A DNA stretch of 64,000 nucleotides. Source: Patescibacteria group bacterium (GTDB lineage Bacteria; Patescibacteriota; Minisyncoccia; Phycocordibacterales; UBA9973). Location: positions 13,301 through 77,300 of the forward strand of contig JAZJXT010000005.1 of assembly GCA_040390725.1 (NCBI GenBank), read 5' to 3'. The position numbers and the translations under genes were made by a program. Below are positions 2,025 to 52,743 of this stretch, one piece after another (the stretch's first letter is position 1; each line of letters starts with the position of its first letter). The notes below the pieces were generated by a model. That model searched no databases, was not told where the DNA came from, and saw only the letters and a list, made by a program, of their open reading frames with translations.

Positions 2025-4316
2025 ATGCGATTGAATTCCATAGAAATAAACGGCTTCAAATCTTTTTCCAAAAAAACACCTTTGGAATTTTTGAGTCCTG
2101 TTGTGGCTGTGGTGGGGCCCAATGGCTCCGGCAAGTCTAACGTCGTCGAGGCATTTCGCTTTGTGCTCGGTGAACAATCAATGAAATCAATGCGAGGTAA
2201 AGCCGGCTCGGATTTGGTTTTTAAAGGTTCAAAAAATCTACCGAAAGGCACTCGCGCATCTGTGACGATTTATTTTAATAATGCGGATAAGATTTTTAAA
2301 CTTTCAAATGAAAGCGGCGAGAATGTAAATTTAAATTTTGATACTATTTCTATTTCTCGTGAAGTGCATATTGATGGATTAAATAAATATATTTTAAACG
2401 GCACCGAGGTACGCTTGAAAGATATACAAAATCTTTTGGCCTCGGTGAATATCGGTTCTTCCGGGCACCATATTATTTCTCAAGGCGAGGCGGACAGGAT
2501 TTTAAATGCATCACCACGGGACAGGCGGGAAATGGTAGAGGATGCACTAGGATTGAAAATATACCAATATAAAATAAAAGAAGCAGATAGAAAATTAGAG
2601 AGAACTTTAAATAATATTAAAGAAGTTTCTTTGTTGCGTAGAGAAAACGCTCCGCACTTGAATTTCTTAAAAAAACAAGTGGAGAAATTTGAAAAAGCTA
2701 AAGAAATGAAAGTGGAACTGCTCGACCTTTATCGAGATTATTTAAAAAAAGAGAGCATATATTTAGACCAAGAAAAAAATAATTTAAATAATGAGAAAAA
2801 TAAAATCTCAAATGAACTGGCAAATATCGGTGGGCAACTTTCCTCCATGGAAAGTAATGCTCCGTTTGAGGAAAATAAAAAATCAATAGAAATTAGAAAC
2901 CTTGAACAAAAAATCAGGGAAATAAGAAATGTAAAAAGTGAACTTGAAAGAAAGCTCGGACGCATTGAAGGAATGATAGAAATGGAAGAACGTCGAACAC
3001 AGAAAGCTCCGGTTGAAATACAAAATCAAAATCATACAGAAAAAGTAAATATTCCTCAAGAAGAGCTAGAGAATTTTTTACGCGAAGCGCACGAGTATTT
3101 GGAAGAGGCTATGTATATGGATGTTTTGGAAAATATTCAACCTATTTTGCGTAAAATAAAGGATATTTTGGATAGGTTTGCGAATTCTACTTCTTCGTCA
3201 AAAGTTCCTTCTGATTCTCACCAACCAGCAGGCAGAGCAGTAACTGATAATTCTGAAATGCTAAATAATGTGCAGGCTCTCAAAGATTCTCAGCAAGCAA
3301 TTCTTGCAGAAATGCAAAAGATAGAACAAGAAGAAAAAAATATTTCTGAGAATGTAGAAATTTTGAAAAGTGAAATTAGTAGAGAAGTAGAGGCAGGCAG
3401 AGAGCAAGAGCGTGCAAGGTTTGATTTGAAAATGAAACATAGTGAGCTTTCTTCGGTGTTGAATGTTTTGAAAGTCAGAGAAGAAAATTTATCACGTGAA
3501 GTGGAAAGTTTCGAAAATGAAATTAGGGAAGGTTCGGCTCTTGTCGGCGGGGAAATTTTTTCATATAAAAATGCGGAAGTTTCCGGTGATATTGAAAAGC
3601 ATACTCAAGAAGAAGAGAAAAGAAAAATAGAAAGAATTAAAATAAAATTGGAAGACGCAGGCCTCGGCGGGGGATCAGAAATAATAAAAGAATATGAAGA
3701 GGTTTCCACCCGTGATCAATTCTTGGCGAAAGAATTGGAAGATTTAGGCAAGAGTATTGATTCATTACGCATATTGATGGCGGACTTGAAAGAGAAGATT
3801 GATTTTGAATTTAAAGAAGGTGTGAAAAAAATAAATAAAGAATTCCAAGAATTTTTCGCTCTTATGTTCGGCGGGGGGTCTGGTTTTCTTTCTGTCGTTG
3901 CCGAGCAGAAAAAGGCAAAAGCAGGGGAGGAAGAAGAAACAGAAGATGGAATTATTTTTGAACATGGCATAGAAATAAATGTTTCTCTTCCGCACAAAAA
4001 AGTAAAAGAACTGCATGCGCTTTCCGGAGGCGAGCGCTCGCTCACATCCATCGCGCTTCTTTTCGCAATGTCGCAAGTCAACCCTCCGCCATTTCTTATC
4101 TTAGATGAAACTGACGCAGCCCTCGACGAAGCCAATTCGCGTAAATATGGCGATATGGTGGAAAGACTTTCCAAGCATTCACAGCTCATAGTCGTCACTC
4201 ACAACCGTGAGACGATGTCCCGCGCAGGAGTCCTCTACGGCGTTACCATAGGTGCCGACGGCGCATCCAAACTCCTCTCCGTCAAATTCGACGAAGCTCA
4301 AGCTATTGCGAAATAA
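2025..4316 (+). CDS. smc: SMC-family chromosome segregation ATPase (short 763-aa form)
   Basis: N-terminal SMC head MRLNSIEINGFKSF...VVGPNGSGKSNVVEAFRFVLGEQS; long coiled coil; C-terminal signature LSGGERSLTSIALLFA and Walker B FLILDETDAALD. About 400 aa shorter than canonical SMC. Confidence 0.8.
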   Translation: MRLNSIEINGFKSFSKKTPLEFLSPVVAVVGPNGSGKSNVVEAFRFVLGEQSMKSMRGKAGSDLVFKGSKNLPKGTRASVTIYFNNADKIFKLSNESGENVNLNFDTISISREVHIDGLNKYILNGTEVRLKDIQNLLASVNIGSSGHHIISQGEADRILNASPRDRREMVEDALGLKIYQYKIKEADRKLERTLNNIKEVSLLRRENAPHLNFLKKQVEKFEKAKEMKVELLDLYRDYLKKESIYLDQEKNNLNNEKNKISNELANIGGQLSSMESNAPFEENKKSIEIRNLEQKIREIRNVKSELERKLGRIEGMIEMEERRTQKAPVEIQNQNHTEKVNIPQEELENFLREAHEYLEEAMYMDVLENIQPILRKIKDILDRFANSTSSSKVPSDSHQPAGRAVTDNSEMLNNVQALKDSQQAILAEMQKIEQEEKNISENVEILKSEISREVEAGREQERARFDLKMKHSELSSVLNVLKVREENLSREVESFENEIREGSALVGGEIFSYKNAEVSGDIEKHTQEEEKRKIERIKIKLEDAGLGGGSEIIKEYEEVSTRDQFLAKELEDLGKSIDSLRILMADLKEKIDFEFKEGVKKINKEFQEFFALMFGGGSGFLSVVAEQKKAKAGEEEETEDGIIFEHGIEINVSLPHKKVKELHALSGGERSLTSIALLFAMSQVNPPPFLILDETDAALDEANSRKYGDMVERLSKHSQLIVVTHNRETMSRAGVLYGVTIGADGASKLLSVKFDEAQAIAK

Positions 4317-4328
4317 AGAAGAGAAAAG

Positions 4329-4712
4329 AACCTCACCCCAGATTCAAAGTATCTCACCCTAAGATTCAAGGAACCTCACCCCATCCGCCAGCTGGCGGAC
4401 TCTCCTTATTAAGGAGAGGGGGAAAATACAAAATTCAAATCGGCATGACTATTTTTTATAACAAATCTAAAAATTTAACTAAAAGAATTTTATTGAGACA
4501 ATCTCAAACTTCTCAAGAAGTAATGCTTTGGGGAAAATTAAGAAATATAAAGAATATGACAAGCAAAGGTCTGATTATTTATCGGTATTTAATATCAAAG
4601 TAATTCGTTTTTGGAATAATGAAATAAATACCAATATAGAAGGTGTCATATTAAAAATTATTGATGAGTTGAATTCCCCCTCTCCTTAATAAGGAGAGGG
4701 TAGGGTGAGGTT
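4329..4712. mobile_element. MITE-like non-autonomous element: imperfect terminal inverted repeats flanking a decayed DUF559 endonuclease gene
   Basis: Left end: 2.5 tandem copies of cctcaccc(c)agattcaa(a)g (4331-4382), palindrome ccgccagctggcgg (4386-4399), palindrome tctccttattaaggagaggggg (4401-4422). Right end 4676-4712 ccccctctccttaataaggagagggtagggtgaggttc is the reverse complement of the left end minus the ccgccagctggcgg piece. Confidence 0.55.
4445..4700 (+). pseudogene. DUF559 (Vsr-like endonuclease domain) gene remnant, internally deleted and frameshifted
   Basis: Frame 1 from ATG 4445: MTIFYNKSKNLTKRILLRQSQTSQEVMLWGKLRNIKNMTSKGLIIYRYLISK* (DUF559 N-terminal pattern LRxxxTxxExxLWxxLRN). 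A second frame from ~4603 gives VIRFWNNEINTNIEGVILKIIDELNSPSP* (DUF559 C-terminal RFWNNEV..LEGVL). The ~60-aa core between them is missing. Confidence 0.55.
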
Positions 4713-4772
4713 CTGCTGGATTTATAGTAGTCGCAAAATAAGCCTTATTTATAAGGACTTTCTATATTTTAG

Positions 4773-5852: not shown

Positions 5853-5888
5853 AAAACGCGTACGATTCAATCTACGCGTTTTCTTTTT
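5853..5888 (+). terminator. rho-independent terminator
   Basis: aacgcgtacgattcaatctacgcgtt stem followed by ttcttttt. A smaller hairpin gccactta...tagtggc precedes it at 5823-5843. Confidence 0.6.
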
Positions 5889-5904
5889 GCTAATTTTTAA
5901 ATTT

Positions 5905-5936
5905 CTACGATAGTCGACATATGTTTGCTATCGTAG
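5905..5936 (+). repeat. 32-bp nested palindrome, copy 1 of 3: CTACGATAGTCGACATATGTTTGCTATCGTAG
   Basis: Perfect 9-bp outer arms ctacgatag/ctatcgtag with inner palindromes gtcgac and acatatgt. Near-identical copies at 50855-50886 (opposite orientation) and 51497-51526. Confidence 0.8.
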
Positions 5937-5948
5937 ATTATGGATAGT

Positions 5949-7841
5949 TTACTTTGCAAACTTAATTTTCTCTTCTTTTCCTAAAATAGGTTTTTGGGGT
6001 TGGAAGACAGAATTTAATTTTATTATATTTTTCTTTACGGACATTGTGCCAGCTTTGTAAAGTTTTATTTCTAGCAACATTCCTTGCATCGTGTTTTCCG
6101 AGAATTTTTGGTCAAAGATAAAGTTGCCTAATGAGTAGGCTATATAACTATTTTTATAAACTTCAAAATCTTCCACGACATGCGGATGCGCGCCGATGAC
6201 GAGTTTGGCACCGTCGTCTACGGCTTTATGCGCTAGGTATTCTTGGCGAGTATTATGTTTTGTTTGATATTCCTCACCGAAATGAAATGACACCACTAAA
6301 CTATCCACTTGTTTCGAAGCATTTTGAATTATTTTATCAAAATTCGGATTAGTGGTGAGTAGTAGTCCAGATTCTGTATCAGTAGGAGTCAACCATTCTG
6401 GGCCTTTATCAGAGAATGCCAGATAGCCTATTTTCATACCATTTTTTTCAATTATTTTAGGAATTTCTGCGTTATTTTCATTTGCTCCGCCTCCCGAATA
6501 AAGAATTTCGTTTTCTGTTAAGTGCGAAAGTGTGTCTTCGAAAGCTTCACGACCCCAGTCGCCGATATGATTGTTTGAAATAGAAAGTACATCTATGCCA
6601 GCACCCTTGAGTGCGGGTATAGTTTCCGGATCCATTCTGAAAGAATATAAATTGTGTTTATCTTCTCCTTGGTCTGACGCTGGGCCTTCTAAATTTGCAA
6701 AGACGATATCATTTTTATTAAGTTCACCCATGTTTTGGAAAAGAGCGGAATAGTCGCCGTTGAAATTCTTGCGAACGGAACTTTTTACTCCGCGGTCGAG
6801 CATGATGTCGCCCAAGAATGCTAAATTCACATAGTCAGGTTCTGCAAATTCAGGCATGCCTTCTTTGGTTTTTACCCAATTACTTTTTGCGTCTATTTCA
6901 CCACCGTAATAAATATTTTTCTTCACAAATTTTAAAATACTTTCCACGTCTTTTTTGCGGTCTGGTGTACGGAGGAGGACAATAGCTACATTTCTTTTCC
7001 CGGACTCAGAAAGAGGCAGGGAAAAATTTGAAATCACCGTTTGCTTAGCTTCGTCGGTGTATCCGCTCTTACCGCCCAGGTATCCATCATCACTTAGGAA
7101 TTGATTGGTGCTGTACCAGAAATGTTTTTTATTGCTGTAACTTTTATTTTGAGTTATTTTTAAAACATTAGGCGCGTTATTTTTTAAATATCCGGCGAGA
7201 GAAAATAGGTCGCGTGCGGTGGATTGATTGTTCGGCGAGAGTCCGCTCGGGTCTTCAAAGGACGTCGAAGGCATTGATAATCTTTGCGCTTCTTGATTCA
7301 TTTTTTGCAGGAAAGTTTCTCTATTAAAGTGTTCGGCTATTATTTCAGCGGCATCATTTGAAGATTCCAGTAGAAGAGGGTAGAGGATATCGCTTATCTT
7401 TATTTTTTCATTTAAATGAAAAGCGCCGTTTTGTCCGTATGTGGCAAGGGCTTTTTTGGAAACAACAGCCACATCATTGTCATCAGGCAGTTCTGTGGCG
7501 GTGAGAGCCGTCATAAGTTTTGAAACAGATGCGATAGGGTATTTTTGTTCTTCTTTTTTCTTTAAAATTATTTCACCGGTGTCCAAGTCACCCACTATGT
7601 ATGCATCAGCAGAAATCTTCGGCGCTATTTTTGGATCTTTTAGAAAATAAAAACTTGTCTGCTCAGGAGTTTTTGTTTCAGATATTGGTGCCGGTTGTGT
7701 TTTCGGGACTTCATTTTGGGTATTTCCTTCTTTTGATATTTTATAATATCCGATGGCTTGCGTTATGAAAAAAGCGGAGGCTAGTCCTACGGTTAAGGAT
7801 ATAATTACAAATAGAAATTTTTTTGCTGCTCGTTTAACCAT
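5949..7841 (-). CDS. membrane-anchored fusion of a serine-type D-Ala-D-Ala carboxypeptidase domain and a CapA/PgsA-like metallophosphatase domain
   Basis: N-terminal TM helix; PBP5-type motifs SVSKLMT (SxxK), ESSND (SxN), KSGYT (KTG). C-terminal half has CapA motifs (LAFLGDIMLDR, FANLEGP, SISNNHIGDWG, VIGAHPHVV). Confidence 0.75.
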   Translation of the reverse strand: MVKRAAKKFLFVIISLTVGLASAFFITQAIGYYKISKEGNTQNEVPKTQPAPISETKTPEQTSFYFLKDPKIAPKISADAYIVGDLDTGEIILKKKEEQKYPIASVSKLMTALTATELPDDNDVAVVSKKALATYGQNGAFHLNEKIKISDILYPLLLESSNDAAEIIAEHFNRETFLQKMNQEAQRLSMPSTSFEDPSGLSPNNQSTARDLFSLAGYLKNNAPNVLKITQNKSYSNKKHFWYSTNQFLSDDGYLGGKSGYTDEAKQTVISNFSLPLSESGKRNVAIVLLRTPDRKKDVESILKFVKKNIYYGGEIDAKSNWVKTKEGMPEFAEPDYVNLAFLGDIMLDRGVKSSVRKNFNGDYSALFQNMGELNKNDIVFANLEGPASDQGEDKHNLYSFRMDPETIPALKGAGIDVLSISNNHIGDWGREAFEDTLSHLTENEILYSGGGANENNAEIPKIIEKNGMKIGYLAFSDKGPEWLTPTDTESGLLLTTNPNFDKIIQNASKQVDSLVVSFHFGEEYQTKHNTRQEYLAHKAVDDGAKLVIGAHPHVVEDFEVYKNSYIAYSLGNFIFDQKFSENTMQGMLLEIKLYKAGTMSVKKNIIKLNSVFQPQKPILGKEEKIKFAK

Positions 7842-14328: not shown

Positions 14329-15036
14329 ATGACATTCCCAAATCCAAATTTAAACCCTGCTTCTTCGGGAGACAATAAAAATTTTGAGAATATTAAGCTC
14401 ACGCCGGAGTATTTTGCCGAACTTTTATATTGGTCGTTTCATCTTTCACAGAACAATGTTCCCTTACAACATAATTATTTTAAGTATCTTCATATTGTTC
14501 ATCCTGACTGGAGAGCTTCAGATGAATTAGCGAATGTTGGTAAAGAAAAATTAAAAGAGAAATTGGGGGATTTTCCTCATTCTCATAAAAATCACACTAA
14601 AGATTCAGGAGATGCTTTTAAAAGAGCAGTTGATTTAGAAATTCATAGACAGCCCTTACATTTAAGAGATAATTTAAATGGAGAAATTCTAAAGTTAGAA
14701 TTTTCTAAAAAACCGCGAGGTAATTCACTTGAAAGTTTATTAATAGAGTCTGCCGAAATGATTATTGACCAAGATTCCCTTTATATAATAAAAGGAAGGC
14801 CGAACAGAGAAGGCAAGCCGTATGAGAGTCAGTTTTGTAATTATGTTTTACTCGGTAAAAAAACGGCTATACCTGAATACGATGATATGTTTTTGAAAAT
14901 GAAAGATCCTTTTATATTAAAAATGTTGGTTGCAGAAAAGACTGCTTTGGTTCGCGATGTAATAATTGCTCACAATAAAGATCATCCAGATAAGCGTGTA
15001 AAGATAGAAGGTTTAAAGTTAGATATAGAAATTTGA
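14329..15036 (+). CDS. hypothetical protein (235 aa)
   Basis: Intact ORF with no recognisable family. Confidence 0.5.
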   Translation: MTFPNPNLNPASSGDNKNFENIKLTPEYFAELLYWSFHLSQNNVPLQHNYFKYLHIVHPDWRASDELANVGKEKLKEKLGDFPHSHKNHTKDSGDAFKRAVDLEIHRQPLHLRDNLNGEILKLEFSKKPRGNSLESLLIESAEMIIDQDSLYIIKGRPNREGKPYESQFCNYVLLGKKTAIPEYDDMFLKMKDPFILKMLVAEKTALVRDVIIAHNKDHPDKRVKIEGLKLDIEI

Positions 15037-18433: not shown

Positions 18434-21400
18434 ATGAAAACATTAAACACAACTGATTTTGATCAAATTACGCTCAAGCTCGCATCACCTGAGCAAATAA
18501 AAGAATGGTCTTATGGAGAAATCACCAAGCCTGAAACGATAAACTATCGTACGGGTCGCAGTGAACGCGGAGGTCTTTTCGACGAGAAAATATTCGGTCC
18601 GGAAAAAGATTATGAATGTTATTGTGGAAAATATCGCCGAATTCGTTATAAAGATATCATCTGTGAGAAATGCGGAGTCGAAGTGACACGCAGTATTGTT
18701 CGCCGTGAGAGAATGGGGCATATAGAACTCGCTACACCAGTAGCGCATATTTGGTTCTTGCGTGGAGTACCTTCACGAATGAGCATTTTGTTGAATATTT
18801 CTGTTTCTGATTTGGAAAAGGTAATTTACTTTGCCGGATATATCGTGACAAAAGTGCACGAAGAAGAAAAAGAAGATATTTTGCAAAATTTGGACAAAGA
18901 ATACAAAGCCAAAGTAAAAAATGCCGCTGACGAAGACACTCGAGAGAAATTAAAAAATCTTTTGACAACTACCAAAAAAGAAATCGGTGAAATATACGAA
19001 GGAAAAGTTTTGAATGAAATTTCTTTTCATCATTATTCTTTGAAGTATGGAACTTGTTTTGAAGCAAATATCGGAGCAGAAGCTATTTATTCGATTTTCA
19101 AAAATTTGGATTTGAATAAATTAAAAATGCATACCGAAGCGATGCTCGAAAAAGCAAGCACTGCGGAAAAAGAAAAAATGCAAAAAAGACTTTCTCTTAT
19201 TCGCGCTATGATGTATTCGAAAGTCCGCCCAGAATGGATGTTTTTGACTGTTATCCCTGTTATACCACCAGTTCTGCGCCCGATGGTTGCCCTTGATGGA
19301 GGACGTCATGCGACATCTGATTTGAATGATCTTTATCGCCGAGTTATAAACAGAAATAATCGTTTGAGAAAATTGAAAGAAATAAATGCTCCGGATGTTA
19401 TTCTAAGAAACGAAAAAAGAATAATTCAAGAAGCAGTGGATGCTTTGATAGATAACTCTATCGCAAAACAAAATGATACAGTCGCGATGAGTCAATCACA
19501 AAAAAGAGCATTGAAATCTTTGTCTGATAACTTGAAATCAAAACAAGGTTTATTCCGTCAGAACTTGCTCGGTAAGCGTGTGGACTATTCCGGACGTTCT
19601 GTTATCGTCGTCGGTCCTCAGCTCAAGCTTAATCAATGTGGATTGCCTAAACACATGGCATTGGAGCTTTTCAAACCTTTCGTAATTTCTAAAATTTTAT
19701 TGGCAGAACTTGCATTCAATATTCGCGGAGCAAACAAGCTCATCGAAGAAAGAACTCCAGAAGTCTGGGCCATGCTCGAAGAAGTTATTTTAGGAAAATA
19801 CGTTCTTCTGAACCGTGCGCCGACTTTGCACCGTTTAGGTATCCAAGCTTTTAATCCTATCCTAATCGAAGGAAATGCTATCCAAGTGCACCCTCTTGTT
19901 TGTCAGGCTTTCAACGCTGACTTCGACGGTGACCAGATGGCAGTATATGTTCCTCTTTCCGAAGAAGCGCAATGGGAAGCAAAAGAATTGATGGCTGCGA
20001 ATAAAAACTTGTTGAAACCTCAAAATGGTGAACCTATCGCAAACCCTCGTATGGATATGGTGCTTGGAGCTTATTGGATGACGAAAGATGTTGATGGTGA
20101 AATGGGCGAGGGGAAATATTTCTCAAGTCCAAATGCCGCTGTGACCGCATACGAATATGGAGTGGTATCCTTAAGAGCAAAAATAAAAGTTATGGCTACA
20201 GACACTGTTAAGTACAAGAAATTTAATCAACAACTTTTTGATACTTCTGTCGGACGCCTTCTCTTTAATAGCATTTTGCCGAATGATTTTATTTACATCA
20301 ATGACGAGATAACTCAAAAGAGAGTCTCTTCTTTGGTTGATGAACTTATCATGCAATACGGCATAGATCAGACTCCACGCATTCTCGATAAAATAAAAGA
20401 ATTCGGATTCAAATATTCTACAATTTCAGGAACAACTTGGGGATTAGACAATGTGAAGGTTCCCGTAGAAAAACCTAAAATTATTGCAGAGGGTAAAAAA
20501 TTAGAAGAAGAAGTAATTTCTCAATGGCAGGACGGTCTTCTTTCTGATGAAGAAAAATATCAAAAGATTATTGAAATATGGACGCATGCAAAAAAGGAAT
20601 TAGAAAAAGTTTTGCCTCAAACTCTCGACAAAAATGGTTCTACTTATGACTTGTTCACTTCTGGTGCCAGAGGAAACATGACATCTTTGTCTCAGATGAC
20701 AGGAATGAAGGGTCTTATTCAAAACAACCAAGGACGCACTGTGGAATTCCCGATTATTCCTTCTTATCAAGAAGGGCTTTCTCCTATCGAATATTTCGTG
20801 ACGACTCACGGTGCCCGAAAAGGTGCATCGGATACTGCTCTTAACACTGCAAAGGCTGGATATTTGACTCGTAGATTGGTGGACGTTGCTCAGGATGTGG
20901 TGATCACCGAAGAAGATTGCGGAACAAAAGAAGGTAAAATTGTTATGAAGGAAAATATTTCCGGTATTGAAATTGCTTTCTCAAAAAATCTTCGAGGGCG
21001 CGTACTAGCAGGTGACTTGAAAGACAAAGATGGCAAGACGGCTTATCATAAAGGATTTTTGATTACCAAAGAAGAAGCGCAAGTTATTGAAAAGGCAGGA
21101 TACACAGAAGCATTCGTGCGTTCTCCACTTACTTGTAAAACAGTTCACGGTCTTTGTCAGATGTGTTACGGTCTCGACCTTGGAAGAAATCACTTGGTGA
21201 ATTTGGGTGAAGCAGTCGGTATCATCGCTGCGCAAGCTATCGGTGAGCCTGGTACACAGCTGACACTTCGAACATTCCACGCCGGAGGTGTCGCGGGTGT
21301 GGACATCACGACAGGTTTACCTCGTATTGAAGAAATTTTTGAAAGAAGAATTCCAAAAAATCCTGCAGTAGTTTCAGAGACTGATGGTGAAGTTATCGAA

Positions 21401-50828: not shown

Positions 50829-50854
50829 GATTTAATAAAAAAATAAAAACTTGT

Positions 50855-50886
50855 CTACGACAATAAACATATGTCGACTATCGTAG
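50855..50886 (-). repeat. 32-bp nested palindrome, copy 2 (inverted orientation), overlapping the promoter of the PaaX-like gene
   Basis: ctacgacaataaacatatgtcgactatcgtag; reverse complement ctacgatagtcgacatatgtttattgtcgtag. TAGAAT -10 (50907-50912) ends 6 nt before ATG 50919. Confidence 0.8.
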
Positions 50887-50918
50887 ACATTGTAAATTTT
50901 TTAGGATAGAATAAAAAG

Positions 50919-51488
50919 ATGAAAAGAAAAATTGTTTATAAAATTTTGGAATCATTGGAAAATTCAGCGCTTGGTTTGCTTGATTTGGCTATTACAATTT
51001 CTGAATCTGGGTATGGCGCAAGTCTAGGTAAGCTTGATCGAGCAGTAGAAGAAAAGTTTAGTAAGCGAACCGCCTTACGTTTAGAAAAGGAGAAAATGGT
51101 GAGAATAAAAAAATACTTATCAAAGTTAAAGAGTGACGGATTAATAAATGAAAATTCGTCGGGGAAAATATTTTTAACCACAAAAGGAAATCAAAAACTC
51201 GGTGCGTATAAAAAATCCGATTTGTCTATTAGGGATGGATACATAAAAGAAGTTGGTGATAAGGTAATAATCATAAGTTATGATATTCCTGTTGCTTTTA
51301 ATAGAGAAAGAAATATTTTGAGAGATATTTTACGAATGCTTGGCTTGGAGCCTGTTCACAAAAGCGTTTGGGTTGGCAAAGTGAAATTGCCAAAAAAGTT
51401 TATAGAGGATATGGGGCATCTTGGTATTTTAGATTACCTTGAAATTTTGGAAGTTACAAAGAGCGGTAGTCTAAAAACTGTGGAATAA
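50919..51488 (+). CDS. PaaX-family-like transcriptional regulator (N-terminal winged helix plus C-terminal PaaX_C/Cas2-like domain)
   Basis: wHTH-like N-terminus (KKYLSKLKSDGLINENSSGKIFLTTKGNQKL). C-terminus VIIISYDIPVAFNRERNILRDILRMLGLEPVHKSVWVGK matches PaaX W-G-W-LVSFDIPE..R..RD.LR..L...GFG.L..SVW. Confidence 0.6.
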   Translation: MKRKIVYKILESLENSALGLLDLAITISESGYGASLGKLDRAVEEKFSKRTALRLEKEKMVRIKKYLSKLKSDGLINENSSGKIFLTTKGNQKLGAYKKSDLSIRDGYIKEVGDKVIIISYDIPVAFNRERNILRDILRMLGLEPVHKSVWVGKVKLPKKFIEDMGHLGILDYLEILEVTKSGSLKTVE

Positions 51489-51496
51489 TAAAGTTT

Positions 51497-51526
51497 ACGA
51501 TAGTCGACATATGTTTGTTATCGTAG
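51497..51526 (+). repeat. 32-bp nested palindrome, copy 3, upstream of the BNR-propeller gene
   Basis: (t)tacgatagtcgacatatgtttgttatcgtag, same orientation as copy 1. Confidence 0.8.
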
Positions 51527-51585
51527 AAAAGTGAGAAATACGATTTTAGCTATCTTTTTGTCCATTTTTGTGGTATGTTTGGTGT

Positions 51586-52743
51586 ATGAAAAATATTAAA
51601 TATGCAAAATTTGGCGCAATTATAATAATGCTTGTTTTTATTTTGCCTTCCATTACGATGGCATCTAACAAAGTACCATTTTTAACTTACAAAGGAGGAG
51701 GACCTTTGTTGGATATTAAATGTACTGACTCTTATTGTGTAGCTGTTGGAAATACTACGCAGGGTAAATTTCAAATATCATTATCAACTGATAAAGGAAA
51801 AACATGGTCAGTTGTGCTTAAAAAAGAAGAAGTAATTAAGGGTGCCCCCGGACTTGTCGGGGTAGATTGTGCTGATAGTACTTGTATAACAGTCGGTGTT
51901 GGAGGAGTAATTTTTAGAAGTGTAGATAGTGGGAAGACATGGACAAATCAGTTAAATATTTTAGGTGATGCAAATAGTGAATTTTCCCAAAGTATTATTT
52001 CTAGTGTTGATTGTGTAAACAGTAAATTATGTTATGTAGTTGGTCAAAATTCTAGTGGCGGATCATCTAAAGCACTAGGTCCCATGATTTTAAAAACAAC
52101 TGATGGTGGAATAAATTGGGTAAGAGTTGAAAGTTCTTTAAGTGGAGCAATGGCTATTGATTTAGTAAAAATGGGAAAAATATTATGTAAAAATGAGATG
52201 GAGTGTTTTGGAATAGGACAACAAAGATCTATTTTTCATACGAGTGATGGTTGGAAAAATATAACATTTCAAAATTTTAAAATCGATGATCCTGTACCAG
52301 CATATAATCCTGATGGTAGTATTGTGTATTTTATAGACGGAAAGCCAAATAGTGTTCCTGAAAAAATTGCTAGAGGAGATTTTTCCGGAATTAGTTTTAC
52401 AAATGATGGAGGAGTGATAGTAGACGATATGGGAGATAGGTTACAGATAATTCTAAAGTCTATGGATAATGGAGTGACATGGAATACTATTCCTTTTCCA
52501 TCATTGCCAAAGCTAAATGCTGGAGGTAGTATTTCTTGCACTGGATCAGTATGTGTAATTGCAAGTTCAAATGGAGTAAGGGGAAAAGTTAATATTTTTA
52601 CTAGTTTAGACAATGGCAATACTTGGACGTATAGTTCTTTAAATAAAAGAATTATGGTTTCGGGTGCTTCTTGCATAGATAAAAATAATTGTTTTGCTAT
52701 TGGTATGTTAATTCCCGTAGGAGTCGTTATTAAAGTTAAATAA
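51586..52743 (+). CDS. secreted BNR/Asp-box repeat beta-propeller protein (Ycf48-like or sialidase-like fold)
   Basis: Signal peptide MKNIKYAKFGAIIIMLVFILPSITMASN; repeated S-x-D-x-G-x-T-W boxes (STDKGKTW, SVDSGKTW, TTDGGINW, SMDNGVTW, SLDNGNTW) with paired Cys. The track ORF starts at TTG 51568. Confidence 0.7.
   Translation: MKNIKYAKFGAIIIMLVFILPSITMASNKVPFLTYKGGGPLLDIKCTDSYCVAVGNTTQGKFQISLSTDKGKTWSVVLKKEEVIKGAPGLVGVDCADSTCITVGVGGVIFRSVDSGKTWTNQLNILGDANSEFSQSIISSVDCVNSKLCYVVGQNSSGGSSKALGPMILKTTDGGINWVRVESSLSGAMAIDLVKMGKILCKNEMECFGIGQQRSIFHTSDGWKNITFQNFKIDDPVPAYNPDGSIVYFIDGKPNSVPEKIARGDFSGISFTNDGGVIVDDMGDRLQIILKSMDNGVTWNTIPFPSLPKLNAGGSISCTGSVCVIASSNGVRGKVNIFTSLDNGNTWTYSSLNKRIMVSGASCIDKNNCFAIGMLIPVGVVIKVK

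Follow-up and report, generated by a model that had tools for sequence, protein, structure and literature searches.

We found that a palindrome of about 36 bp, present in three copies in a 64,000-nucleotide stretch of the Patescibacteria group bacterium assembly GCA_040390725.1 (contig JAZJXT010000005.1, positions 13,301 to 77,300; hereafter, the window), is very probably the DNA site bound by a regulator of 189 amino acids (aa) whose gene is flanked by two of the copies. The contig belongs to a low-GC metagenome-assembled genome (MAG) of the Patescibacteria. The first-pass annotation of this DNA had read the palindromes either as a set of operators, including one with which the regulator controls itself, or as the ends of a mobile cassette. 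The operator reading is supported, and strengthened, by the conservation of the sites across loci, by their overlap with the regulator promoter and by the co-variation of protein residues with bases of the sites.

The 32-mer CTACGATAGTCGACATATGTTTGCTATCGTAG occurs three times in the window when up to three mismatches are allowed (Table 1), and none of 100 dinucleotide shuffles of the window contained a match, so the copies are not due to chance. These are the three recurrent palindromes described in the first-pass annotation, with the start of copy 3 moved from 51497 to 51495. Read more widely, each copy is an imperfect palindrome of ~36 bp that consists of a 10-bp arm, four nucleotides (nt), the core ACATATGT, four more nt and the second arm, as in the dyad GTCTACGACA...TATCGTAGAC. 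The core is an 8-bp palindrome and the 4-nt spacers are non-symmetric. Both this core and the internal GTCGAC reported earlier are found in all three copies; the perfect 9-bp arms that had also been reported hold for copy 1, as copies 2 and 3 have two arm mismatches each. The sites are oriented, as had been proposed: copies 2 and 3 have opposite orientations, as 15 of the central 16 nt agree in the inverted alignment versus 9 in the direct one. The spacing between copies is 640 bp and 45 kb. No fourth copy was found in the window at an identity of at least 24/36, no site in the ~2.9 kb past its right end (L044) and no additional one in a 6.5-kb Logan contig of the source genome (SRR26324628). 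An exact 21-mer of the site was not found in the GTDB representative genomes, and a 19-mer matched metagenome contigs just five times, by chance and never with the right arm (four from an organism of 22% GC, one from a contig of 55% GC).

The regulator comprises an N-terminal helical region, a predicted winged helix (recognition helix at about residues 60-72, wing at 76-86) and a PaaX_M domain at residues 112-187. PaaX_M (PF20803), a central Cas2-like domain, is detected by Pfam with 29.2 bits against a cutoff of 24, and replaces the PaaX_C domain that had been assigned to the C-terminal part. The protein stops at residue 189, straight after the Cas2-like domain, without a PaaX_C effector domain. 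The winged helix is picked up in Pfam by HTH_45 alone (21.4 bits, below its cutoff of 25.5), matches of the MarR and Sso10a types are below the family thresholds, and the PaaX N-terminal model (PF07848) has no Pfam match in the regulator. The structure model shows a helix plus a beta-hairpin wing (76-86), and the fold matches those of PaaX and Cas2. As in Cas2, the C-terminal domain has a ferredoxin-like fold with a conserved acidic residue at the end of beta-1: residues 117-158 align to positions 3-42 of the PADLOC Cas2_II profile, the invariant D122 aligns with the catalytic Asp of Cas2, and residues 128-132 fall in the beta1-alpha1 region. Solved structures, searched by sequence, gave no significant match, the PHROG phage library gave none, and the PADLOC defence library returned Cas2 profiles only. 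No CRISPR array was found in the window, and no cas1 or other cas gene is among its annotated genes, which are the smaller part of its open reading frames (ORFs).

Related loci were surveyed in GTDB representative genomes (35 loci) and through exact-protein look-ups (ten loci); 37 loci entered the first survey, 36 the synteny, promoter and solo-site scans, and 43 the co-variation analysis. Homologues of the regulator number more than 200, almost all 188-189 aa long, and come from MAGs of Nomurabacteria, Paceibacterota and the Parcubacteria type. A profile search gave 249 clusters (50% identity) at E ≤ 1e-30 and 982 at E ≤ 1e-10, and no homologues were found in IMG/VR viral contigs. The proteins of the related loci are ~35-66% identical to the window protein, and almost every homologue (37 loci) has one palindrome upstream and one downstream with the same architecture. 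The first-pass annotation had expected an operator to recur upstream of related regulators, and almost all of them carry one. The sites are ~36 bp long in the relatives, sometimes 34 bp; the upstream site usually ends 25-32 nt before the ATG and the downstream site lies 6-60 nt after the stop codon. Among six loci added later, the downstream site is present in all six and the upstream site in all but one, which is at a contig end.

Arms and cores vary between clades, with ACATATGT, GTATATGC, TCATATGA, CCATATGG, GCGATCGC, ACGATCGT and CCGATCGG among the cores; the variant is always common to both sites of one gene. Mean site identity is 29.3/36 within a locus versus 17.4/36 between loci. Several genomes hold two regulator copies, and the source genome of the window has a paralogue (V4439_03180). 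When the sites of paralogues within one genome are compared, they are alike at 3-13 of 36 positions in three of five pairs and at 25-27 in the other two. The two sites of a locus are in direct orientation in 22 of the 37 loci and inverted in four (the window, L001, L008 and, marginally, L004, with 14 versus 12 of the central 16 nt); the rest are ambiguous.

Obg is encoded upstream of the regulator in 18 of the 36 loci and GatB downstream in 15. Four later loci in which both flanks are available have the order obg-X-gatB, where X is the regulator, and a fifth, which lacks the upstream flank, has GatB downstream. In every locus with either neighbor, the regulator is on the same strand as Obg or GatB. 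The neighborhoods of paralogues differ (Dus-X-DnaX in L001; KBL-X-TypA in L022 and L027). The downstream site is retained even before a convergent next gene, so it belongs to the regulator and not to the promoter of the neighbor. Where the next gene is a leaderless gatB, the distance from the downstream site to its start is 51-76 nt, a variation that led us to reject a fixed activator geometry for this site.

Copy 2 terminates within the -35 box of the sigma-70-type promoter of the regulator gene (TAGACA-17-TAGAAT), in agreement with the overlap reported earlier. Given that the -10 box ends 6 nt before the ATG, the regulator mRNA is probably leaderless. In the related loci, 18 of 36 promoters score at least 9/12, and 17 of these 18 have a -35 box that overlaps the site; the gap between the -10 box and the ATG is mostly 6-7 nt. 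With the upstream site lying over the -35 box of the leaderless promoter, autorepression is likely, and we consider it fairly probable that the regulator represses its own transcription.

The strongest argument that the sites are bound by the protein encoded between them is residue-base co-variation. The pairings are the classical ones, namely asparagine with adenine, aspartate with cytosine, alanine with thymine, and arginine or lysine with guanine. Half-sites of the 43 loci were compared with the protein columns. Residue 65, in the predicted recognition helix directly before the invariant Tyr66, tracks the arm: with Lys or Arg at this position the arm tetranucleotide N(T/C)AC starts with C in 101 of 103 half-sites, and with Asn, Ile or Val it starts with T in 33 of 36. 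Residue 132, which belongs to the motif FN(R/K)ER-x-ILR in helix alpha-1 of the Cas2-like domain, tracks the outermost base of the core half-site (Asn with A in 81/84, Asp with G in 39/50, Ala with T in 10/12, Arg with C in 12/16 and Lys with C in 3/4; Gly is mixed). Residue 128, one helical turn before, tracks the third core base (Asn with A in 139/142; Lys, Arg or Ser with G in 28/28). Each of the three residues ranks top of the 189 columns for its own base, with z values of 13-14.5 versus 4-8 for the runner-up, although the sequences are related and these statistics overstate their independence.

A nearest-neighbor comparison indicates several phylogenetically independent switches. At residue 132, Arg arises inside the Asn-type main clade, Ala appears twice, and Asp and Asn alternate among close relatives; Lys, Arg, Asn and Asp are all found within the group with the CGATCG core. 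Prospective tests were made with six protein look-ups, with predictions stated beforehand for part of them. Three of the six agreed with the prediction: P0006 (Asp, GTATATGC), P0085 (Ala, TCATATGA, with I65 and GTTTAC arms) and P0101 (Lys, CCGATCGG). No prediction was made for P0007, in which G132 goes with mixed bases, as fits a loss of contact. P0089 (Arg), which is from the same species as L021 and not independent, follows the rule in half of its half-sites (CCAT/GCAT). The sixth protein, P0100, is taken up below. If the code is true, the favored core should become GCATATGC with N132D, CCATATGG with N132R and TCATATGA with N132A; K65N should favor TTAC arms, and N128R should move the preference from ACAT to ACGT half-sites (core ACGTACGT).

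These patterns suggest that the Cas2-like domain, besides the helix-turn-helix, reads DNA bases. In the E. coli Cas1-Cas2 complex, N10, R14 and R16 of Cas2, in the beta1-alpha1 region, contact the prespacer duplex (PMC8390960), so DNA contact by this surface has a precedent. These Cas2 contacts consist of hydrogen bonds and electrostatic interactions, and base specificity is not described for them (PMC8390960); the contact that we infer for the regulator is base-specific, which would be new for a Cas2-like domain. The C-terminal domain, D122 included, is also more conserved than the DNA-reading N-terminal part (mean column identity of 80% versus 66%), and therefore may have an additional role.

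Table 1. Positions of the palindromes, the regulator locus and other features; a locus name precedes positions outside the window
Feature	Position	Strand	Remarks
32-mer match 1	5905-5936	+	0 mismatches
32-mer match 2	50855-50886	-	3 mismatches
32-mer match 3	51495-51526	+	2 mismatches
Copy 1, predicted solo operator, TTCTACGATAGTCGACATATGTTTGCTATCGTAGAT	5903-5938	.	perfect 9-bp arms; 32/36 identical to copy 3
Copy 2, predicted upstream operator, GTCTACGACAATAAACATATGTCGACTATCGTAGAC	50853-50888	.	promoter-proximal arm provides the -35 box
Copy 3, predicted downstream operator, GTTTACGATAGTCGACATATGTTTGTTATCGTAGAA	51493-51528	.	begins 4 nt past the regulator stop codon; inverted relative to copy 2
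Sigma-70-type promoter of the regulator gene	50884-50912	+	10/12 consensus matches
Regulator gene, 189 aa	50919-51488	+	flanked by copies 2 and 3
Putative extended -10 box (TGgTATGTT) and leaderless ATG (51586) of the BNR-propeller gene	51571-51588	+	inferred by reading the sequence
BNR/Asp-box propeller gene	51568-52743		between regulator and gatB
GC-rich islet	4316-4720		22-bp tandem repeat (2.8 copies) at 4325-4383
Solo sites	window copy 1; L004; L016 (two); L023
L016 solo sites, ACATATGT type	L016:14963-14998 and 18875-18910		bracket an operon
Site of P0100	L047:938-973		Asp132 in an Asn-type clade
Genes of the second PaaX_M family	L013:5219-5854; L009:102-692; L026:5774-6394; L036:3088-3576
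Palindrome with CGATCG core, 36 bp	L013:5824-5859		overlaps the 3' end of the second-family gene
Palindrome of the generic scan	window 15215
Palindrome of the generic scan, TGTTGGTAATTT-ACGCATATGC...	L006:3880-3915		~85 nt upstream of an ORF of 115 aa (4000-4347)
Palindrome of the generic scan	L011:2524-2559
Palindromes of the generic scan, arms TTGTAAATAAT...GCTATAGC...	L035:10052-10087 and 14954-14989

The symmetry of the sites is informative about the molecule on which they act. Arm positions 1-9 and the four central pairs are strongly dyad-symmetric across 74 sites; the symmetry is only weakly above random at positions 10-12, and near random at spacer positions 13-14 (26/74 sites paired). 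Symmetry that runs through the dyad axis does not have a hairpin origin, since these bases would be in the loop. The proposal that the palindromes act as RNA, as hairpins in 3' untranslated regions that terminate transcription, affect stability or are targeted by the Cas2-like (RNase-like) domain, is highly unlikely in view of the central 8 bp, which are palindromic in every clade and would be meaningless in a hairpin loop. The sites can fold as RNA, as any palindrome can, but copy 3 folds weakly (z -1.8) and the upstream site precedes the transcription start of its gene. Nor do the sites look like terminators or structured RNAs in other respects: arm mismatches are unbiased (32 G.T versus 26 A.C), no U-tract follows the sites, a terminator scan at the regulator locus called no terminator, and Rfam gave no match. 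Co-variation with the recognition helix of the winged helix also speaks for DNA. The spacers are conserved though asymmetric (GTCG / TTGY in the window, CTTTT / TCRAG in the main clade); positions 10-14 are kept between the copies of a locus and across species, and the orientation with respect to the gene is flipped in a few lineages, including that of the window.

The first-pass annotation offered an alternative reading: a non-autonomous mobile cassette of ~670 bp, with the flanking copies as its terminal inverted repeats, would carry the regulator, and copy 1 would be a remnant left on its own. This reading draws on the fact that the gene and both sites always travel together, that paralogues are found in varied neighborhoods (L001, L022 and L027) and that several genomes have two copies. 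We regard it as refuted for practical purposes and, at best, very improbable: the obg-X-gatB slot is conserved in most loci, direct sites outnumber inverted ones (22 loci against four), relatives are absent from the viral contigs, no gene remnant lies beside copy 1, and the flanks of the window's two sites carry no target-site duplication (empty sites were not searched for). The co-variation of protein and site is moreover that of a DNA-binding regulator. Another DNA transaction, either a lox- or dif-like inversion or cleavage by a Cas2-like nuclease with a catalytic Asp, is suggested by the resemblance of inverted arms around an asymmetric center to recombinase sites, by the invariant Asp122 aligned to the catalytic Asp of Cas2 and by the better conservation of the C-terminal domain. 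This also seems improbable, as there is no recombinase among the immediate neighbors (Obg, BNR, GatB) or the called genes of those related loci that have Pfam annotation, no inversion variants were seen with the regulator always on the strand of its Obg or GatB neighbor, the sites are intact and conserved, and the PaaX_M domain of a bona fide repressor has the same motifs. That the sites are bound by a different, unlinked protein, with an incidental link to the regulator gene, is hardly credible when the association of gene and sites is near universal across such divergent proteins and site variation tracks residues 65, 128 and 132 of the regulator specifically.

Cognate binding by the flanked regulator is the explanation that we consider probable, and several points weigh against it or its details. 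The conserved non-symmetric spacers are not explained by a purely symmetric dimer. The downstream site and copy 1 are at gene 3' ends, with nothing obvious there to repress. Confidence in the structure model is low over the N-terminal 30 residues, and the relatedness of the loci tempers the co-variation statistics. The code has exceptions: L035 breaks the residue-132 rule (Asp with ACGATCGT), and the prediction for P0100 (L047) largely failed, with D132 in an Asn-type background and ACAT in three of four half-sites, GCGT in the other. This protein is 83% identical to that of L008, and the locus may represent a specificity switch caught midway or a plain exception to the code.

Under the binding reading, the regulator, for which we use the name mini-PaaX because it has a PaaX-like layout without the effector domain and the paa context, and with an added core and a second operator, would form a two-fold symmetric oligomer, at least a dimer through the Cas2-like domains, on duplex DNA. 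Two winged helices would read the outer arms (N-T/C-A-C...) and helix alpha-1 of the Cas2-like domains would read the palindromic core (ACAT|ATGT). At the upstream operator, occlusion of the -35 box would repress the regulator's own leaderless promoter. The downstream operator would be an inherited part of the unit, for which we can offer two rather doubtful roles: it might cooperate with the upstream operator by looping over ~640 bp, or, at a similarly low probability, separate the regulator from the next transcription unit by acting as a roadblock or insulator. It may also influence the next gene, because it lies 51-76 nt upstream of a leaderless start; this gene is gatB in most genomes, and here the BNR gene followed by gatB. 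The full combination is put forward as a tentative proposal: the Cas2-like domain as a sequence-specific DNA reader (helix alpha-1, F-N128-R-E-R-N132-I-L-R, in the major groove at the operator center, two bases per half-site, with the code Asn-A/Asp-C/Ala-T/Arg,Lys-G), winged helices on the arms, and gene-bracketing operators that form a self-contained unit for autoregulation, looped or insulated, with several rounds of duplication and re-specification inside single small genomes.

Copy 1 is found between convergent genes, as the sequence and gene calls confirm. On one side of it is the stop codon (5949-5951) of a PBP/PGA_cap gene, which lies on the minus strand and is the final gene of an RNase R-PBP pair; on the other side is a hairpin at ~5853-5890, in which we read the succession of A-tract, stem and T-tract as a putative bidirectional terminator for the convergent genes. 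The terminator scan lists only a different, minus-strand hairpin near copy 1 (5860-5843). A tblastn search for a decayed regulator or paralogue beside copy 1 gave noise only (E=0.14). Copy 1 would be one more binding site of the regulator, here at an operon's 3' end (RNase R-PBP). Solo sites of this kind are rare, with five in 4 of the 36 loci scanned, each within ~10 kb of a regulator gene. The small regulon proposed in the first-pass annotation stands in that such sites exist, and is weakly documented by their number. In L004, the solo site follows a Mur ligase gene by 5 nt and closely precedes a promoter. In L016, two solo sites bracket an operon of L25, SLT transglycosylase, release factor and RRM genes, and the second precedes a tRNA gene promoter by ~50 nt. 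The obg-gatB regulator resident in L016 has TCATATGA-type sites; given that the solo cores are different, another paralogue probably controls these translation-related genes. The solo sites of L016 and L023, with a core unlike that of the resident regulator, may therefore belong to other paralogues.

Near copy 1, the window contains a GC-rich islet with a 22-bp tandem repeat. An inverted pair (...CTCTCCTTATTAAGGAGAGGGGG / CCCCCTCTCCTTAATAAGGAGAGGG, at ~4400-4425 and 4676-4700) flanks a stop-ridden, AT-rich fragment (nine stops in 4446-4604, frame 1), and the islet looks like a decayed small insertion.

The gene order of the window is YqeY-205aa-MYG1-Obg-X-BNR-GatB-aldolase-FAD oxidase, which is collinear with L045 apart from the BNR gene; in L045 a 79-aa ORF follows the regulator, and then gatB. 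The BNR/Asp-box propeller gene, whose product has an N-terminal hydrophobic segment, abuts gatB. Its putative leaderless start is 57 nt from copy 3. No BNR-like protein is an immediate neighbor of the regulator in the other loci of the 36 compared, and the gene is a lineage-specific insert. Leaderless starts seem common in these genomes, with a -10 box (often the extended TGnTAnnAT) 6-10 nt before the ATG and no Shine-Dalgarno sequence; examples are the regulator (window 50884-50921) and the gatB and L25 starts in L005-L033 and L016.

The same genomes encode a second family that is more PaaX-like (winged helix and PaaX_M, 162-211 aa, PaaX_M E values of 1e-13 to 1e-20; Table 1), so they have several regulators of the mini-PaaX kind. 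In L013, the second-family gene is overlapped at its 3' end by a palindrome of 36 bp whose core is CGATCG. A generic scan for 36-bp palindromes returned others in the window, L006, L011 and L035 (two), which have different arms and were not counted as part of this system. The one in L006 is upstream of an ORF that appears to be of the Xre helix-turn-helix type by sequence. The use of long palindromic operators may be general in these genomes.

The closest characterized counterpart is the PaaX repressor of E. coli and Pseudomonas (PDB 8a39, 3L09), which responds to phenylacetyl-CoA and in which an N-terminal winged helix precedes PaaX_M, the order predicted for the regulator as well. The E. coli protein binds the operator TGATTC-N27-GAATCA, represses its own promoter by occluding RNA polymerase and has its dimerization motif in the middle, between the winged helix and the effector domain; its complex with the operator was unsolved according to a 2022 review (PMC9493321). 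The short, widely separated arms of this operator are similar to the GTCTAC-N24-GTAGAC of the regulator, and PaaX has an operator over its own promoter, as is predicted for the regulator. Unlike PaaX (~305 aa), the regulator has 189 aa, no PaaX_C, no match to the PaaX N-terminal Pfam model and no paa genes nearby; its operator has a conserved palindromic core that co-varies with Cas2-like residues, its unit includes an obligatory second operator past the stop codon, and it occurs only in genomes of Patescibacteria (Paceibacteria-type), where it is sited between obg and gatB. Unlike Cas2, it is fused to a winged helix, has no CRISPR array in the window and would have a regulatory role rather than one in spacer integration. 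In comparison with MarR and Sso10a proteins, it would dimerize through the Cas2-like domain rather than a helical bundle or coiled coil, and its half-sites are much further apart.

Looping repressors such as lambda CI (OL-OR), GalR, LacI and DeoR have operators that flank their own gene or promoter. The regulator resembles them in having one operator at the promoter and a second several hundred bp away, so that the gene is bracketed, although it is from an unrelated family and any looping would be by analogy. We found no characterized transcription factor of this family, and no study of its sites, in the literature on Patescibacteria, also named the Candidate Phyla Radiation (CPR).

Patescibacteria have small genomes. 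The gene and its two sites are, judging from the loci compared, a unit kept across a large group of these uncultured, ultra-small bacteria: a widespread regulator family (~250 clusters at 50% identity and E ≤ 1e-30) paired with a predicted operator and usually found between obg and gatB, two genes related to translation. It is unusual for a second operator to follow the stop codon directly irrespective of the next gene, and this may point to looping or to roadblock insulation in compact genomes. Base-specific contacts by a Cas2-fold domain, if true, would bear on the evolution and function of the Cas2 surface and of the PaaX middle domain. Finally, a recognition code of three positions would make the sites predictable from the protein, so that regulons could be reconstructed from metagenomes alone.
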